From Christensenellaceae bacterium (GTDB lineage Bacteria > Bacillota > Clostridia > Christensenellales > CAG-138): a DNA stretch of 64,000 bases. How positions within the stretch are numbered: position 1 is the first letter of the stretch; every line of letters begins with the position of its first letter. This document shows positions 18,360 to 28,804 of this stretch, piece after piece. Position numbers and translations under genes: made by a program. The notes beneath the pieces are model-generated. The model searched no databases. It had not been told where the DNA came from and saw only the letters and a list, made by a program, of their open reading frames with translations. The stretch lies in the NCBI GenBank assembly GCA_022510765.1, contig JAFLSU010000001.1, positions 70,551-134,550 of the forward strand. The letters are read 5' to 3'.

Positions 18360-18388
18360 TTGCAATTTTAAAGATAATGTTGTATAAT
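18360..18388 (+). promoter_or_regulatory. Candidate promoter of tRNA-Ser
   Basis: TTGCAA (18360-18365) is followed by a 17-nt spacer and TATAAT (18383-18388), about 90 nt upstream of the tRNA. Confidence 0.5.
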
Positions 18389-18479: not shown

Positions 18480-18568
18480 GGAGAGGTATCGAAGTGGTCA
18501 TAACGGGGCTGACTCGAAATCAGTTTGCGCGAGAGCGCACATGGGTTCGAATCCCATCCTCTCCGCCA
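18480..18568 (+). tRNA. tRNA-Ser (anticodon CGA), CCA-encoded
   Basis: It folds by hand. The acceptor stem is GGAGAGG/CCTCTCC. The T-arm is ATGGG-TTCGAAT-CCCAT. The anticodon stem is GCTGA/TCAGT with loop CT-CGA-AA. A long variable arm (TTGCGCGAGAGCGCAC) is typical of Ser, and the 3' end is GCCA. Confidence 0.9.
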
Positions 18569-22494: not shown

Positions 22495-25400
22495 TCAGCT
22501 ATTGGAAATGCGTTTTTTGCGGGAAATACTTCCGAGATTAAGCACGGCACCGGTTAACAGAAGCCCGCCCAAAAGATAGAATGGCAACGTGCCGATTCCA
22601 CCGGCAGCAGGGAGATCATATAAACTGGGTTTATCGCTCAATACCATGCTTTCCAAATTGTTTACATTTAACCATTTAATGTCAGGATATTGTTGCTCAA
22701 ATTCTTCAATCTCCTCATCACTAAAATAGAAATAATACTTGTTAGGATCAAGATAATAACCAGCCGGCGCAGTTAACTCTTGCAGATAATAAACCACATT
22801 CGGGGCCAAAATTATACCTTGATTAAAATTCGTACGGAACTCAAATATTCCCTCATCATTCGTCGTTCCTGTTGTAATTTCGTGACCGTCAGCACTATAT
22901 AAACCATACCTCGCACCAGGAAGCCTGGTCCACTCACTCGATCCGAGTCCCACACCTCTTTCATCAATTTTTTCGATTGTAAGATGTATTCTGTACCATA
23001 CAGAACCACTATCAATGTCCATCTCACCGTTAGTTTCAGATGAAACACCAAAATTAGAAAAGCGTAAGATTGCTATATTACCGTAATAAATTCGCCCAGT
23101 TTCTTCTTCATCGAATTCAATCATTACATCATATTTAATGGTATACTCATGAGCACCCGGTTGCTGCAAATAAATAGTTAGTACCCTTGTATCGTTATCC
23201 CATTCGTAGGTATAATCTTTTTCATAGGCCAGTCGCGTATTATCCTCATCAATAACCAACGACCCCAGAACAAAAAACATATTTTTCATTTCATCCACGA
23301 TTTTAAGCTTTGCTTCCTCGCCTTCGCCTACATACTCGCCCAAATTAACTTTGCCACCCTCATTAATAACGATGGTATAACTACCAAAGCAGCTTTCGTT
23401 ACCAGAAGGCGAGCTCGTCTCAGTCTTTTTAATTAGTTTAGGAATAGGTAGTTTTATCTCAGATCTAGCTGCCGTAGCAGTACCATTACGTAAACGTGCC
23501 TCATTAATATATTCATCTTCTGTACTATCCAAAATTTTAACTTCATCGTATGTACCCAGTCCATATGTATCTGTTGCATACGTTATTATCAAATCAGCAT
23601 CTTCCATTAAACTCCAATGTGTACACCAATCCTCTCCACCTTCGAGATTAAACTGATCCTTTAAACTATATCTACAATTCTCTTCTTTACGGTTTACTAA
23701 ATAAAGCCAACCTACCGAATTGCAATAATAAGCAATCGTATCATCTTCATTAGCATCACTTACCTCCGGTAACACAAAACTTTCCCCATCATATCGAATT
23801 GCAACACTAGCACCATTCAAACGCCAAGTATAAGTCGATTCATCACCCAATTTCTCTTGGTCAACTATATTCCACTGACCATAATTTAGCCCATTATACT
23901 TAGGAATCGACGCTGTAATCATAAAATGATACTTGCCATCGTTCAGGTCAAGCTTCCCTGTTTTCTTTATTTCTGGCTTCGTCAAGCTTTCTCCACCTTC
24001 AGATGGAATCTCAAAGTCAAAATTTAACCAAAATTCTACACCCATAGCATCACTTGAATTTTCTTCAAACGTAATAGCAAGCAGACCATCTTTCTCAACT
24101 ACATAAGTGCCAATAACATCATTGCCAAGCTTAACCTCGCCAGCAACCTTTCCTTTAATTTCAAAAACTTCTTTCGGAAGCTGGCAGGTATAGACGCCCG
24201 ATTGAAATCCGTTATGATCAGTCGAATAAATATACATTGAGAACTTGTACTTCCCGCCAGGATACATGTTATAATGCCCCTCGTCATCTGGGTATATTTC
24301 TACATTGTTTTGTTCGTCTATTTTCCAGATGATTTTGTAGTTAAACTTTCCTCCTATGGAACGAATATATTCTTCCAAATTTCTTCCCTCAACAACATCT
24401 GCCAACACAAACGGTGAAAAGTGGTCTGCTGTAAAAGTTACTTTCGTTACAACTCCATTCTCACCAGTCGCGATTTCTGCTTCCAGATTTTCTGGTGTCT
24501 CTTCATCCTGCAAGTGGAACAACTTCCAGTCACCCGTATTAATAAATTTTTCAACCGGTGTTTGGAACTCCAAGGACACTGTTACATTACCATTTAACTG
24601 CACCTCATCTCCATCTACATTCACGAAGGAAATATCATAAGGATAGATTGCCGCTAACGCGAGCATCATTCCTGGCTGCTCCGGTTGTTGCAAGGCATTT
24701 TGTAAGGCCTGTTTTATCTTATCCAGCTGTTCTTGATGTTCTTGACCCTCGATCTGACTCACTCGCAACGACGCACCCTCGGGCACCGCATTACCATTGT
24801 CATATACAGATACTGTCACATTACCAATATTAACGGTTAAGTCAGTGTCCTCATTAGTAATTGCGGGTACTTCTGAATTCTCATCGGAAGGTTTCGGCTG
24901 CTCCTCAGTAGGTTCATCCAACTCTACCTCACGGAAACAGCCGTCTCCGTGGACATGCTCATAAAGCACTGTTTTCTCGCAGATCAACTGACCATCCAAA
25001 TCGTAACAATTCTCCGGACTATGGGTATGCATCTCCAGCTCACCACAAATCAACATCCCTGTTTCATCGTAGCAGCTTTCCTGATGCTCGTGGGGTGCAA
25101 TTTCAGGCAGTTGGCAGAGCAGACTTCCTTCCTCGTCCCAACAACCTTCGGTATGTACGTGAACCACATAATCTGCTTCTCCGCAGATTAGCTGTTCCTC
25201 TTCGTCGTAACATTCAGTTCCATGCTCATGAACAATGAGAGGGCAGTCCAGCAGCAGATTGCTGCCTACCTCTGCATCGCCGCTTGAATCGATAAGGTTG
25301 TCATCATCATTCGGATCTTCCTCCGCCGCTATCTCCCGGAAACAGCCGTCCCCATGGATATGCTCATAAAGCACTGTTTTTTCACAGATCAACTGACCGT

Positions 25401-26157
25401 CCAGATCGTAGCAATTCTCCGGACTATGGGTATGCATCTCCAGCTTATCGCAAATCAATATCCCCATTTCATCGTAACAGCTCTCTTGATGCTCATGGGG
25501 TGCGATTTCAGGCAGTTGGCAGAGCAGGTTTCCGGTCTCATCCAAACAACCTTCGGTATGTATGTGAACCACATAATCTGCTTCTCCGCAGATCAGATTC
25601 TTCTCTTCGTCGTAACATTCCGGCCCATGCTCATGAACGCTGAGAGGACAGTCCAGCAACAGATTACTGCCTGCCTCTTCCTCTGCCTCATGGAAACATT
25701 CGTCTCCGTGGACGTGCTCAAAAAGTGCTATTTTTCCGCAGGTCAACTGACCGTCCGCGTCGTAACAATTCTCCGAACTATGCGTATGCAGCTCCAGCTC
25801 ACCACAAATCAACATCCCCGTTTCATCGTAACAGCTTTCCTGATGCTCATGGGGCGCGATTTCAGGCAGTTGGCAGACCAGGTTCCCCGCCTCGTCCCAA
25901 CAACCTTCGGCATGCGCGTGAATCACATAATCCGCTTCCCCACATATAAGCTGCTCCTCTTCGTCGTAGCATTCCGGCCCATGCTCATGAACGATGAGAG
26001 GGCAGTCCAGCAACAGGCTATTGCTTGCCGCCGAGAACCTTGGCAAAGTTATTATATAGACCAATGCCAGCATCATCGCCACCACGCGTATCCAAACGGA
26101 GCGCCCCTTGCGCTTTTTGGAGGACGCATTTTGCGCCTGATTTTCAAATTTCATCAT
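22495..26157 (-). CDS. Sortase-anchored cell-surface protein (adhesin-like) with an N-terminal Cys/His-rich tandem repeats and a C-terminal Cna-B/SpaA-type domain
   Basis: The start is at MMKFEN (GAAGGA RBS), giving 1,220 aa. A signal/TM segment (WIRVVAMMLALVYIITL) is followed by three repeats of about 120-135 aa. A Cna-B-like domain is present (LPGARYGLYSADGHEITTGTTNDEGIFEF...YYLQELTAPAGYYLD). The C-terminus has LPAAG, then the hydrophobic stretch GIGTLPFYLLGGLLLTGAVL, then a basic tail RKKR, which reads as an LPXTG-like sorting signal. Confidence 0.85.
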   Translation of the reverse strand: MMKFENQAQNASSKKRKGRSVWIRVVAMMLALVYIITLPRFSAASNSLLLDCPLIVHEHGPECYDEEEQLICGEADYVIHAHAEGCWDEAGNLVCQLPEIAPHEHQESCYDETGMLICGELELHTHSSENCYDADGQLTCGKIALFEHVHGDECFHEAEEEAGSNLLLDCPLSVHEHGPECYDEEKNLICGEADYVVHIHTEGCLDETGNLLCQLPEIAPHEHQESCYDEMGILICDKLEMHTHSPENCYDLDGQLICEKTVLYEHIHGDGCFREIAAEEDPNDDDNLIDSSGDAEVGSNLLLDCPLIVHEHGTECYDEEEQLICGEADYVVHVHTEGCWDEEGSLLCQLPEIAPHEHQESCYDETGMLICGELEMHTHSPENCYDLDGQLICEKTVLYEHVHGDGCFREVELDEPTEEQPKPSDENSEVPAITNEDTDLTVNIGNVTVSVYDNGNAVPEGASLRVSQIEGQEHQEQLDKIKQALQNALQQPEQPGMMLALAAIYPYDISFVNVDGDEVQLNGNVTVSLEFQTPVEKFINTGDWKLFHLQDEETPENLEAEIATGENGVVTKVTFTADHFSPFVLADVVEGRNLEEYIRSIGGKFNYKIIWKIDEQNNVEIYPDDEGHYNMYPGGKYKFSMYIYSTDHNGFQSGVYTCQLPKEVFEIKGKVAGEVKLGNDVIGTYVVEKDGLLAITFEENSSDAMGVEFWLNFDFEIPSEGGESLTKPEIKKTGKLDLNDGKYHFMITASIPKYNGLNYGQWNIVDQEKLGDESTYTWRLNGASVAIRYDGESFVLPEVSDANEDDTIAYYCNSVGWLYLVNRKEENCRYSLKDQFNLEGGEDWCTHWSLMEDADLIITYATDTYGLGTYDEVKILDSTEDEYINEARLRNGTATAARSEIKLPIPKLIKKTETSSPSGNESCFGSYTIVINEGGKVNLGEYVGEGEEAKLKIVDEMKNMFFVLGSLVIDEDNTRLAYEKDYTYEWDNDTRVLTIYLQQPGAHEYTIKYDVMIEFDEEETGRIYYGNIAILRFSNFGVSSETNGEMDIDSGSVWYRIHLTIEKIDERGVGLGSSEWTRLPGARYGLYSADGHEITTGTTNDEGIFEFRTNFNQGIILAPNVVYYLQELTAPAGYYLDPNKYYFYFSDEEIEEFEQQYPDIKWLNVNNLESMVLSDKPSLYDLPAAGGIGTLPFYLLGGLLLTGAVLNLGSISRKKRISNS
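24922..26025 (-). repeat. Three tandem coding repeats (about 357-405 nt units) in the adhesin gene
   Basis: Protein units begin near residues 69, 188 and 323 of the long ORF (SNLLLDCPL..). They are near-identical at the protein level. The mirror ORFs at 24949-25191 and 25354-26190 on the plus strand reflect the DNA repetition. Confidence 0.9.
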
Positions 26158-26304
26158 GACGGTGTTCCTTCTTTCTTTAAAACAATTTAACAAAGCCATA
26201 TCAACGTTCTTCATCCGTATATTTCTCAAAATATATGAGAAAATAATATCGGGTGAGGAAGCGGCGGCTTCGTCTGTCGTCTGCTTTGATGATTGAGGCA
26301 GAAT

Positions 26305-26326
26305 ATTTCGCAGAGTTCTTCACTCT
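26305..26326. repeat. Inverted repeat, left arm (ATTTCGCAGAGTTCTTCACTCT)
   Basis: It is the exact reverse complement of 27743-27764 (22 of 22). Confidence 0.95.
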
Positions 26327-26337
26327 GCACATTCAGC

Positions 26338-26366
26338 ATTATAGCATAAGTGCTTGGCTTTTGCAA
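26338..26366 (-). promoter_or_regulatory. Near-consensus outward-facing promoter inside the IR-bounded segment, directed at the adhesin gene
   Basis: On the minus strand, TTGCAA (26366-26361) is followed by the 17-nt spacer AAGCCAAGCACTTATGC and TATAAT (26343-26338). It lies 11 nt inside IR-L, and transcription would run through IR-L to the ATG at 26157. Confidence 0.55.
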
Positions 26367-26547
26367 GAGGGTTCACAAAAAAGCCACTTATATTTTTGGC
26401 TTTTCTTCATGATGAGATACGAATTATGAGATTTTTCCATTGAGAGACAGCGATTATCGGAGCAATCGCCGTCAAAGCCGCCGTCATACGAGAGTAAATT
26501 CGCACCGCTGAAATAATAGATAAAATCTTCAAAAGGAGGACATTATT

Positions 26548-27666
26548 ATGTCAAGGAAAGGCGAAAACATTTACAAGCGTAAAGACAACCGCTGGGAGGC
26601 ACGGTATATCAAGGGTTACACAGCGGAAGGAATCATTCGTTATGGCTATTGCTATGCAGCAACGTATCGAGAAGTAAAAGAAAAGGTGACGGCCGCAAAG
26701 GCTGCCTTGATGAATAATCTCACTCCGGAACCAGTGAGCATCAGACGTCGGTTCGGTCTTTACTGCGACGAATGGCTCCGATTGAATCGCAGTCGTGTCA
26801 AGGAATCCACTTATGTCAAGTATATAACGAACATAGAAAATCATATTAAACCAAAGCTCGGCGGGTGCTTTGTGCAGGGGCTTTCTTCACTGATTGTTGA
26901 GGAATTCAGCCATGATTTGCTTTATGAAAAGGAATTATCCCCAAAAACAGTTCGGGACATTTTGATGCTTCTTCATGCTATTCTCAAATATACGCAGAAA
27001 CAGGTGCCGAATATGCCTTTGGTAGAAGTGGTCTATCCAAAGGACATAAAAAAGGAAATGAGGGTATTAAGCCGAGACGAACAAACGCGCTTGGTTCAAT
27101 ATCTGCTTTTAGATATGGACGAATGTAAATTTGGCGTATTGCTTGCGCTGCTGACCGGACTGCGGATAGGTGAAGTATGCGCACTGCGCTGGCGGGATGT
27201 CTCTTTGACAGACAAGCTGATGTGCGTTTCTTCTACTATGCAGCGACTTAAAAATCTCGATGAGAATGCACAGCAAAAAACAAAAATTATCATCAGCAAT
27301 CCAAAAAGCAACACATCTGCCCGACAGATCCCATTGACCGATTATACCGTGAAGCTCTGTAAAGTCTGGGAGGTTCGTGATCCCTCTGCGTTTGTTCTTA
27401 CGGGAGAGACTGACCGCTATATTGAGCCTCGCACATTGCAGTATCGCTTAGAGCGCTATACCAAGGATTGCGATCTTTCCGGTGTCCATTTTCATGTGAT
27501 GCGACACACTTTCGCTACCCGATGTGTTGAGGTTGGTTTTGAAATTAAGTCCCTTTCCGAAATCTTAGGTCACACAAGTCCGAAGTTCACGCTAGAGCGG
27601 TACGTTCATTCTTCTTTGGAGTTGAAGCGTGACAACATGAGCAAGCTGGGGGCTATCGGTTACTGA
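26548..27666 (+). CDS. Tyrosine-type site-specific recombinase/integrase with an N-terminal AP2-like arm-binding domain
   Basis: 372 aa with an AAGGAGG RBS. The N-terminus is ENIYKRKDNRWEARYIKGY...YGYCYAATYREV (Tn916-Int-like arm-binding pattern). The catalytic set is TGLRIGEVCALRW (R), HVMRHTFAT (H-x-x-R) and LGHTSPKFTLERYVH (H...Y). Confidence 0.9.
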   Translation: MSRKGENIYKRKDNRWEARYIKGYTAEGIIRYGYCYAATYREVKEKVTAAKAALMNNLTPEPVSIRRRFGLYCDEWLRLNRSRVKESTYVKYITNIENHIKPKLGGCFVQGLSSLIVEEFSHDLLYEKELSPKTVRDILMLLHAILKYTQKQVPNMPLVEVVYPKDIKKEMRVLSRDEQTRLVQYLLLDMDECKFGVLLALLTGLRIGEVCALRWRDVSLTDKLMCVSSTMQRLKNLDENAQQKTKIIISNPKSNTSARQIPLTDYTVKLCKVWEVRDPSAFVLTGETDRYIEPRTLQYRLERYTKDCDLSGVHFHVMRHTFATRCVEVGFEIKSLSEILGHTSPKFTLERYVHSSLELKRDNMSKLGAIGY

Positions 27667-27742
27667 TTTATCGCCGTCAGATTGCTCCGTCAAAAACATC
27701 GAAAAACTCCTGATTTCAGCAATATTTTCCTTTGCAAATAAT

Positions 27743-27764
27743 AGAGTGAAGAACTCTGCGAAAT
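27743..27764. repeat. Inverted repeat, right arm (AGAGTGAAGAACTCTGCGAAAT)
   Basis: It is the exact reverse complement of 26305-26326. Confidence 0.95.
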
Positions 27765-28047
27765 TAGATATTCACAAAGGTTAGTTTTTAACAGAACTAC
27801 TCAAATTGATGAATATCATGAAGTGGAGCAAGCATGTTGATCTCTCTTGAGGGGAACAACGTGTTTTTCTCTTGTGCCACTTTTTATTTTCCTTTTCGTG
27901 GGTGTTCAAAGCCAAGGGGGCTAACTCTGCCAGCGGGGAGAGTTCATGCACAGGTGGCAGCGTCCTTTTGCTACCCATGGCTAAAAACCAAAAAGCAAGG
28001 CTCTCAGCATTCACTGCGCCAAGAGACTTGTTTACATATTCAACACC

Positions 28048-28334
28048 TTAATCCAGCAGATACAGGTGCAGCAAGTCCTCCCGGCTTTCCTCCCGAAGTC
28101 GTTCCACAGCATACCGAAGCCTTCCTCTGGCGTGGGGATTTCTTCGGCACAAGATATCCGGCGCCATTGCGCCTGTTTCTTTGGGTCTGGACCATTTGGT
28201 CAAGCTATGATGCGTTCTGTTATAATCGTTTTCATTTCCTCAACCGTGATGTTCCTTTCACAGGCCAATTTTTCAAAGATAGTTTCTTGATTTTTTATAT
28301 CAATCACCTCCACAAATAATGATAGTACTCCCAT
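28048..28334 (-). pseudogene. Decayed small MGE-type gene (in-frame TGA plus a frameshift)
   Basis: The minus-strand reading is MGVLSLFVEVIDIKNQETIFEKLACERNITVEEMKTIITERIIA-TGA-PNGPDPKKQAQWRRISCAEEIPTPEE. A frame change is then needed to continue ..RYAVERLREESREDLLHLYLLD. The AW.NPDP...W....PTPEE pattern recalls small Spo0A-C-like proteins of clostridial conjugative elements. That family assignment is from memory only. Confidence 0.35.
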
Positions 28335-28498
28335 TAGCTATTCAAGCCATGACTGCGCTGCCTCGTTATATAACGGATTTCGCATTTGACATGAATAACA
28401 TATTCTCTTTTTGGGTATTATAGTATCTACCGATAAATCCTATTATATCACCTTTTTGGGGATTATGATAGATAAAAATGGGTAGGTTGGAGGTTTAC

Positions 28499-28804
28499 AT
28501 GGATGCTCAAAAGCGAATACGTGAATTGATGGAAGAACGTGGCTGGTCAGGATATAAACTTGCAAAGGAAGCGAACCTTTCGCATTCCACCGTTTCAAAT
28601 ATATTTAACCGAAATAACGCACCGACGTTACCGACCATAGAGGCGGTGTGCAGAGCTTTTGGCTTAACACTGGAGCAGTTTTTCTCGGACGGCGATTGCC
28701 CGACAAAGATGACCGAGGAGCAACGCAATCTATTCGCAATGTGGAGTTCGATGACAGACGAGCAGAAAGAGGCTCTGCTCCACTTGATGAATACTATGAA
28801 ATGA
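28499..28804 (+). CDS. XRE-family helix-turn-helix transcriptional regulator
   Basis: The start is at MDAQKR, 5 nt after GGAGG. The HTH is WSGYKLAKEANLSHSTVSNIFNRNNAPTLPTIEAVCRAFGLTLEQFF. Confidence 0.8.
   Translation: MDAQKRIRELMEERGWSGYKLAKEANLSHSTVSNIFNRNNAPTLPTIEAVCRAFGLTLEQFFSDGDCPTKMTEEQRNLFAMWSSMTDEQKEALLHLMNTMK

Follow-up and report, generated by a model that had tools for sequence, protein, structure and literature searches.

A putative self-contained promoter switch that encloses its own tyrosine recombinase gene, upstream of an adhesin gene in a Christensenellaceae bacterium

Background

The inversion of promoters as a means of phase variation has been charted well in Bacteroides and C. 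difficile, whereas little of it has been mapped in the Clostridia, which are dominant in the gut. We considered here a stretch of 64,000 nt (hereafter, the window), part of a 232-kb contig of a Christensenellaceae metagenome-assembled genome, in which two perfect inverted repeats (IR-L and IR-R) enclose a tyrosine recombinase gene (int) and a promoter-like sequence (Pout) directed outwards, towards a gene encoding a large surface protein (the adhesin gene). The question raised by this locus is whether the segment 26305-27764 is able to invert and, in this case, which gene its inversion would switch.

An earlier examination of the letters of this DNA (hereafter, the sequence-only reading) had proposed an invertible segment with both recombinase and promoter inside it, found in the ON orientation and different from an insertion sequence. 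We consider this proposal probably correct: 26305-27764 is best described as a self-contained phase-variation switch, provided with its own integrase, the sites of this integrase and an outward promoter, and in the adhesin-ON orientation as assembled. The proposal agrees with a conserved architecture, with the lack of target-site duplications and with homologues that invert, as reported below.

Sequences considered

At E<1e-10 the recombinase of the window has more than 7,900 homologues, all of about 370-374 aa. A profile search gave at least 576 loci in species-representative genomes, and in metagenomes the family comprises thousands of protein clusters. The figures given for the family (arms, promoter, accessory sites and target-site duplications) refer to the best 80 of the at least 576 related loci from species-representative genomes, whose hosts are Oscillospiraceae, Lachnospiraceae and other gut Clostridia. 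Cultured isolates with a member of the family include Blautia celeris NSJ-34 (L038) and Lachnoclostridium sp. MSJ-17 (L073).

Inversion of homologous elements

Homologous elements invert naturally at their repeats. Precisely, an integrase 69% identical to that of the window (P0050) was found, unchanged in its protein sequence, in seven contigs that come from different samples: two of them read conjugation genes, int and cpsB-wzz-cpsD, and four have these flanks exchanged and reversed. Within one strain (L106 compared with L105) the flanks are 99.96-100% identical and the 1,486-bp int segment is inverted, with alignments that overlap by 19 nt at each junction, the overlap being the repeat itself. 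The same was seen in two species-level pairs, in which the int segment is collinear and the flanks are swapped and reversed (L056/L063, flanks 92-96% identical and breakpoints visibly inside the repeat; L060/L064, flanks 93% identical). Moreover, of the loci with a homologous TetR-gene neighbour, 11 have it on the promoter side and 9 on the other. The flipped relatives that the sequence-only reading had suggested looking for do therefore exist, with breakpoints in the repeats, also within a single strain. From these homologues we infer that the window element would invert as well.

Inverted repeats as core recombination sites

The sequence ATTTCGCAGAGTTCTTCACTCT at 26305-26326 is found again, as its exact reverse complement, at 27743-27764, with 1,416 nt in between. 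Allowing up to 3 mismatches, these were the only two copies in the window, with 0.00 expected (100 shuffles), in agreement with the sequence-only reading, according to which a perfect 22-bp inverted match was not expected by chance. The match ends at 22 nt and not even a 1-base extension is possible on either side. IR-L, whose positions 26305-26326 form the perfect inverted repeat, makes a full palindrome (GCAGAGT-TCTTC-ACTCTGC), and in IR-R the inner half-site reads ACTCTAT, a degenerate form of the consensus ACTCTGC.

A repeat pair in the same geometry was found in about 65 of the 80 loci analysed, with the left arm about 240 nt 5' of the int ATG, the right arm about 80-100 nt past the stop and a unit of 1.41-1.6 kb; among the loci analysed, int was always inside the segment. 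When the arms were aligned on the motif, their consensus was TTTTTCGCAGAGTT..nCACTCTGCGAAA, that is, two half-sites of about 11 bp in inverted orientation with a short spacer in the middle, and the layout in relatives was TTTCGCAGAGT, a variable spacer and ACTCT. The spacer is the least conserved part of the arm between loci (27-48%), whereas within a locus its two copies are 93-95% identical. Such a locus-specific spacer, common to both arms, is the signature of a tyrosine-recombinase core site. In fact, the overlap region of tyrosine recombinases must match between the two partners, and its asymmetry sets the outcome of the reaction; since the core sites of the window are in inverted orientation, the outcome would be inversion of the 1.46-kb segment.

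As regards additional core sites, no short inverton excluding int was found in 67 loci, and the extra core copies were same-side tandem duplicates. They were observed in 11 of the 67 loci (L005, L009, L010, L012, L013, L015, L037, L042, L046, L053 and L060), on one side of the switch and 30-100 nt from the arm, and may be alternative crossover partners that change the spacing at the junction. In a further locus (L049:3668-6133) the matching core sites are 2.46 kb apart, and the segment comprises int and about 1 kb of additional sequence. The exact 22-nt repeat, spacer included, was also present in an IMG/VR contig of 2,384 nt that has no integrase gene (L108:709-730), either as a solitary site or as a chance match.

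The outward promoter and the gene it faces

Pout consists of TTGCAA (26366-26361) and TATAAT (26343-26338) separated by 17 nt, with a TG one base 5' of the -10 hexamer. The latter ends 11 nt inside IR-L, and transcription is predicted to start at about 26331. This was the highest-scoring promoter-like site in the region 25900-28300. Three copies of the pattern TTGCAA-N17-TATAAT are present in the window, where 0.02 would be expected; one of them (18360-18388) is upstream of the tRNA-Ser gene (18480-18568). Most relatives have a promoter of the form TTGnnn-17-(TG)TATAAT 6-37 nt inside IR-L: an outward promoter with a score of at least 10 was found in 47 of 66 loci, whereas only 6 of the 66 had one on the other strand of this interval, and the right interior of the family loci had no promoter comparable to the left outward one. 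On these grounds Pout is probably an active promoter. The sequence-only reading had described the same site, its likeness to the tRNA-Ser promoter and the lack of a comparable promoter in the fixed interval between IR-L and the adhesin gene, and in these three respects our results coincide with it.

The product of the faced gene carries a membrane anchor at its N-terminus, together with three tandem repeats rich in Cys and His and a SpaA prealbumin-like domain, and it terminates with an LPAAG sorting signal, a hydrophobic stretch and RKKR; from these features together we considered it a sortase-anchored surface protein. On the other side of the segment, right of IR-R, the source record calls a 161-aa open reading frame (ORF) at 27834-28319 (+), which we rejected as a second regulated gene since it has no family match at E=10 and an odd composition, and is probably spurious. 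On the minus strand, two ORFs of 44 and 51 aa (28334-28048) look like a single gene split by a frameshift, convergent with the segment and ending at a hairpin similar to a terminator (28025-28001). Finally, an Xre-type HTH_3 gene (28478-28804, +) is 715 nt off and reads away from the switch. An ON/OFF switch of the adhesin gene is therefore the most economical reading, because the right side offers little beyond a doubtful ORF, a frameshifted gene and a distant Xre-type gene.

A different output of the same inversion was also considered, in which the segment controls mainly the right-hand Xre-type regulator, or the expression and read-through of int itself, with the adhesin gene driven from elsewhere. 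We judge it improbable. In the family, switches often lie between two outward genes and frequently face TetR, ECF (extracytoplasmic function) sigma factor or HTH_3 genes, read-through from int could reach the adhesin gene in the flipped orientation, and the promoter predictions are consensus matches only. Against it, Pout is the best match of the region, carries the hexamers of the tRNA-Ser promoter and is aimed at the adhesin gene through a leader free of promoter-like sites; next to IR-R only the doubtful ORF and the small convergent gene are available, and large surface proteins recur as direct neighbours in the family.

As a separate observation, three DNA repeats follow one another in tandem at 25000-26037 (-) within the adhesin gene; they are 81-87% identical, have periods of 354 and 405 nt and encode the N-terminal Cys/His-rich modules of about 118-135 aa (LLLDCPL.VHEHGPECYDEE...). 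The number of these repeats could vary by slippage or recombination.

The recombinase

The int gene, already recognised in the sequence-only reading, is an intact ORF preceded by the ribosome-binding site (RBS) AAGGAGG (26533-26539). Its product was matched in Pfam by Phage_integrase (4e-25) and by Phage_int_SAM_3 (SAM-like core-binding, 2.5e-9). The catalytic residues R206, H316, R319, H342 and Y352 (motif R..HxxR..H..Y) were invariant in an alignment of 35 sequences. Only tyrosine-recombinase domains were detected, so that the enzyme is not a serine recombinase of the Hin/Gin type. The protein scored 17.8 and 14.9 bits with the NCBIfam tyrosine-type DNA invertase models NF007370 and NF007371, below their cutoffs of 221 and 222, respectively.

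In the AlphaFold2 (AF2) model (predicted local distance difference test, pLDDT, 80.6) residues 7-55 form an N-terminal domain of three strands and one helix (E7-10, E16-24, E30-37 and H40-55, with a local pLDDT of 65-83), and the strands of residues 224-262 are a beta insertion within the catalytic domain. The top structure match was the Int of Tn1549 (6EN0/6EMZ), with 2.5e-17 in the hidden Markov model (HMM) comparison, 7.7e-14 in Foldseek and about 20% identity; the next-best match was full-length lambda Int, aligned by Foldseek over 362-372 columns. A sequence comparison of the protein with solved arm-binding domains gave no match. The three-strand, one-helix fold is described for the arm-binding domains of the Tn916 type (PMC8138268). 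Because of the AF2 model and of the repeated candidate arm sites described below, we assigned a putative arm-binding role to the N-terminal domain; the enzyme is thus predicted to be a three-domain integrase of the lambda/Tn916 type with an arm-binding-like N-terminus. The sequence-only reading had already indicated a Tn916-type arm-binding domain: the modelled fold and the matches to Tn1549 and lambda Int speak for it, and the Pfam search of the N-terminus does not.

Accessory sites

Upstream of the int ATG, at a median distance of 79 nt, 62 of 67 loci have on the int strand two C(C/A)GTC(A) motifs in tandem, about one helical turn apart; there were no such pairs on the other strand and none in shuffles. 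On the right side, 28 of 67 loci showed a strict tandem pair, whose median distance from the int stop is 7 nt. In the window both pairs are present (Table 1), and the right one, which starts 6 nt past the int stop, has the same direct orientation as the left one. These CCGTCA tandem sites are, by position and conservation, putative arm-type sites.

Another motif had been suggested by the sequence-only reading as an accessory or alternative crossover site, namely CGGAGCAATC at 26458-26467, with an inverted copy at 27680-27689. It is indeed present and inverted; we rejected it as a conserved feature, given that no inverted 8-mer was common to the left and right interiors across the family. The motif is thus specific to the window, and the conserved sites are the direct, tandem CCGTCA ones.

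Table 1. Features of the switch locus, with positions numbered along the window
Feature	Position	Strand	Description
Adhesin gene, target, 1,220 aa	22495..26157	-	ATG at 26157, RBS GAAGGAA upstream
Fixed leader, IR-L to adhesin start, 147 nt	26158..26304	-	no promoter-like site reported on minus strand
IR-L, left core site	26305..26328		outer half-site TTTCGCAGAGT, spacer TCTTC, inner half-site ACTCTGC
Pout, putative outward promoter	26338..26366	-	TTGCAA-17-TATAAT, extended -10 TG; consensus level
Left putative arm-type pair	26467..26486	+	CGCCGTCA at 26467-26474 and 26479-26486, tandem direct, 12 nt apart
Weak promoter-like site for int	26499..26526	+	TTCGCA-16-TAAAAT, 9/12 matches; just 3' of arm-type sites
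int, tyrosine recombinase, 372 aa	26548..27666	+	ORF and Pfam; three predicted domains
Right putative arm-type pair	27672..27692	+	CGCCGTCA at 27672-27679, CTCCGTCA at 27685-27692
IR-R, right core site	27743..27764		exact reverse complement of IR-L
Right flank, faced by Pout after inversion	27765..28804	+	ORF calls, Pfam

Proposed mechanism

The recombinase would be produced from inside the segment, whichever its orientation, with the weak promoter-like site listed in Table 1 as the presumable promoter of int. Its core-binding and catalytic domains would bind both core sites (TTTCGCAGAGT, the 5-nt TCTTC and ACTCT), and its N-terminal domain would probably recognise the CCGTCA tandems that flank int, bridging arms to cores. 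Strand exchange in the identical, asymmetric spacers would then invert the segment; the catalyst of this inversion is, we infer, Int.

In the assembled state, transcripts starting from Pout would cross IR-L and the leader and enter the adhesin gene (ON). In the flipped state, Pout would face the right flank, towards the Xre-type regulator gene, and the adhesin gene would be OFF because its only recognisable promoter is lost. The sequence-only reading had predicted that inversion turns the promoter away from the adhesin gene, as we also find, and that int is placed head-on to this gene, which is not the case: after inversion int would be co-directional with it. No terminator was found after int in the window, and in many relatives a terminator hairpin does separate int from the right arm. 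The OFF state may therefore be leaky, with some read-through from int into the adhesin gene, because the flipped int points to this gene and no terminator follows it. An Rfam scan of the switch region gave no match.

State of the window element

Several results weigh against the interpretation of the locus as an active adhesin switch. The exact protein of the window was found on one contig only, with neither a second nor a flipped copy, and its nearest homologue is only 73% identical. Searches with the exact repeat in the Joint Genome Institute (JGI) metagenomes and in IMG/VR gave one unrelated site each, without int on the contig. For two homologues, present in 6-10 metagenomes each, a single orientation was observed on all the contigs, and some switches may therefore be strongly biased or slow. 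Pfam detects no domain in residues 1-72 of Int, and both the activity of Pout and the binding to the arm-type sites are predictions from consensus and conservation only. Finally, no convincing gene adjoins IR-R, and a two-way toggle at this locus is doubtful.

Another reading is that the locus is a locked or decaying relic of a switch, which no longer inverts and leaves the adhesin gene constitutive. One orientation in a single assembly is what such a relic would give, as is the degenerate inner half-site of IR-R; some homologues, moreover, keep a single orientation over many samples. We nevertheless regard a relic as quite improbable: the arms are identical in 22 of 22 positions, an identity that would not be expected to last unless selection or continued recombination maintained it, int has its full length and every catalytic residue, and both arm-type pairs and the promoter are intact. 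As to the half-site, degenerate inner half-sites are common in the family and occur also in members that demonstrably invert.

Target-site duplications and mobility

No direct duplication was present at the ends of the window element (flanks ..GGCAGAAT| and |TAGATATT..), as stated in the sequence-only reading, and in 64 relatives target-site duplications were not found beyond chance, the counts being equal to the control expectation. It is very improbable, in the light of this, that the unit is a small insertion-sequence-like or miniature integrative element with the tyrosine recombinase as its transposase and an incidental promoter: compactness, terminal inverted repeats, a single recombinase gene of the arm-binding group typical of mobile elements (PMC8138268) and relatives in many different genomic contexts would suit it, and stand-alone unit contigs, which are common, are also yielded by multi-copy elements, but no identical copies were seen at different loci (the locus-specific spacers and the 50-73% diverged int argue against recent transposition), only one copy is present in the 64-kb window, the same flanks are kept while the segment is inverted, inverted core sites cannot give excision, and the outward promoter and the surface-gene neighbours are conserved.

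The stand-alone contigs on which many homologues lie measure 1.36-1.63 kb, which is the size of the unit bounded by the repeats. One of 1,417 nt (L083) breaks at both repeats. Another, of 1,625 nt from a k99 assembly (L011), has a terminal inverted repeat of 99 nt that corresponds, at both ends, to the repeat and 77 nt of one flank. We did not count it as proof of mixed orientation: it fits, yet a genuinely long inverted repeat would look alike.

Comparison with known systems

The adhesin switch proposed here shares its main traits with fimS of E. coli type 1 fimbriae, acted on by FimB/FimE, and with MrpI and IpuA/B: a tyrosine recombinase flips a promoter segment between short inverted repeats and, as in fimS, an adjacent adhesin or fimbrial gene is turned ON or OFF. 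The Fim recombinases, however, are of about 200 aa, lack an arm-binding domain and are encoded outside the 314-bp element, whereas in the window a 372-aa integrase with three predicted domains is inside a 1.46-kb element with its own putative accessory sites. The topology is closer to that of Hin/hix of Salmonella (and of Gin, Cin and Pin), in which the recombinase gene and an outward promoter are inside a segment of about 1 kb bounded by inverted repeats. In that case the enzyme is a serine recombinase assisted by a Fis-bound enhancer, whereas the enzyme of the window is a tyrosine recombinase with putative arm-type sites. The description of the locus as Hin-like with a tyrosine enzyme, given in the sequence-only reading, is accordingly apt, int and Pout being both between the repeats and the enzyme having tyrosine-recombinase domains only.

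The integrases of Tn916 and Tn1549 are the best sequence and structure matches and have in common with Int the predicted N-terminal domain, the catalytic beta strands and repeated short motifs near the core sites, similar to arm sites (PMC8138268). The identity is about 20%, though, and there is neither a Xis gene nor transposon cargo; the inverted core sites surround int alone, which implies inversion and not excision or integration, and the flanks are ordinary chromosomal genes.

In the Clostridia, the RecV switches of C. difficile (cwpV, flgB and cmrRST) also invert by a tyrosine recombinase and control surface proteins and regulators, but one remote recombinase serves several short switches and is never inside a switch (PMC5903667). 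A 2025 survey of hCom2 tied the Clostridia "inverton group 139" to the tyrosine "invertase group 35", with orientation shifts seen experimentally (PMC11892184). These too are invertons of gut Clostridia tightly associated with a neighbouring tyrosine recombinase; they measure about 230-260 bp, with the recombinase nearby and not enclosed (PMC11892184), a layout that was not found in the 67 loci of the present family. Finally, the hsdS loci of Streptococcus pneumoniae (PsrA/CreX) and the type I restriction-modification (R-M)/PglX shufflons have a tyrosine recombinase gene in the inverting locus, but they reshuffle coding sequences (specificity subunits) and flip no promoter.

According to reviews, recombinases may be found "near or inside" invertible DNA, Hin and loci of the shufflon type being the examples given. 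A promoter inverton with the integrase inside it was not described for Clostridia in the full-text literature that we searched, whose coverage is incomplete. The class of mechanism is familiar; three aspects are not, namely that the cassette is self-contained, that an arm-binding integrase is exapted in it and that the family is so broad among gut Clostridia. Integrases of this kind count as a hallmark of mobile elements (PMC8138268), and the one considered here appears exapted as a resident DNA invertase.

More speculatively, and we hold this to be unlikely on the present data, the family could be a major unrecognised class of autonomous, portable "flip cassettes" of gut Clostridia, each made of a domesticated Tn916-type integrase, core and arm sites and an outward promoter. 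If the cassette were portable as a unit, this would explain why the architecture is nearly identical before unrelated surface-gene operons; the operons served would be those of pilin-like adhesins, S-layer proteins, TasA-like fibres, capsule regulators, sigma factors and TetR. With a segment of about 1.5 kb that bears a gene, such a class may escape the standard inverton finders.

Leaving this speculation aside, the scale of the family points to a common and self-contained way of switching adhesins, fibres, S-layer proteins and the regulators of capsules. Segments of about 1.5 kb break metagenome assemblies at the repeats, and searches restricted to short intergenic invertons may overlook the family; PhaseFinder, for example, probably limits the distance between the repeats. 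A compact genetic toggle could also be obtained from a cassette of this kind, in which a single gene, that of the integrase, is joined with its sites and a promoter.

Neighbouring genes in the family

The neighbours of the switches were mostly surface-related. They included TetR regulators heading operons with a SipW-like signal peptidase and TasA/camelysin-like proteins, or with glycosyltransferases; SpaA/FctA pilin-like, SLH S-layer, Listeria-Bacteroides-repeat and dockerin proteins; and, among regulators, capsule regulators (cpsB-wzz-cpsD), an ECF sigma factor and Xre-type regulators. In several loci there are outward genes on both sides (in L060/L064 a sigma factor gene versus that of an SLH protein; L063 has HTH_3), and switches of this kind can act as two-way toggles.

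In L085:5362-9122 a TetR gene is followed by genes for a SipW-like S26 signal peptidase and small proteins, and L096:2844-5638 has a SipW-like operon with a weak Peptidase_M73/TasA-like match and a large Listeria-Bacteroides-repeat protein; both arrangements resemble the tapA-sipW-tasA fibre operon of Bacillus. The actively inverting switch of the P0050 contigs L102-L107 lies between conjugation genes (Toprim primase, TraG/VirD4 coupling protein and HTH_36) and cpsB-wzz-cpsD, and appears to be at the edge of a conjugative element.

In phage and plasmid collections the best match to the integrase of the window had at most 46% identity, with the same repeat architecture. Precisely, a fecal contig deposited as "Bacteriophage sp." (GenBank MT837341; L095:1063-2502) carries a 1,440-bp unit with a 45.6%-identical int, a terminator after int and the repeat TTTCGTAAAGT-ATATA-ACTTGAAG. 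Members of the family may be mislabelled as viral because of their integrase.

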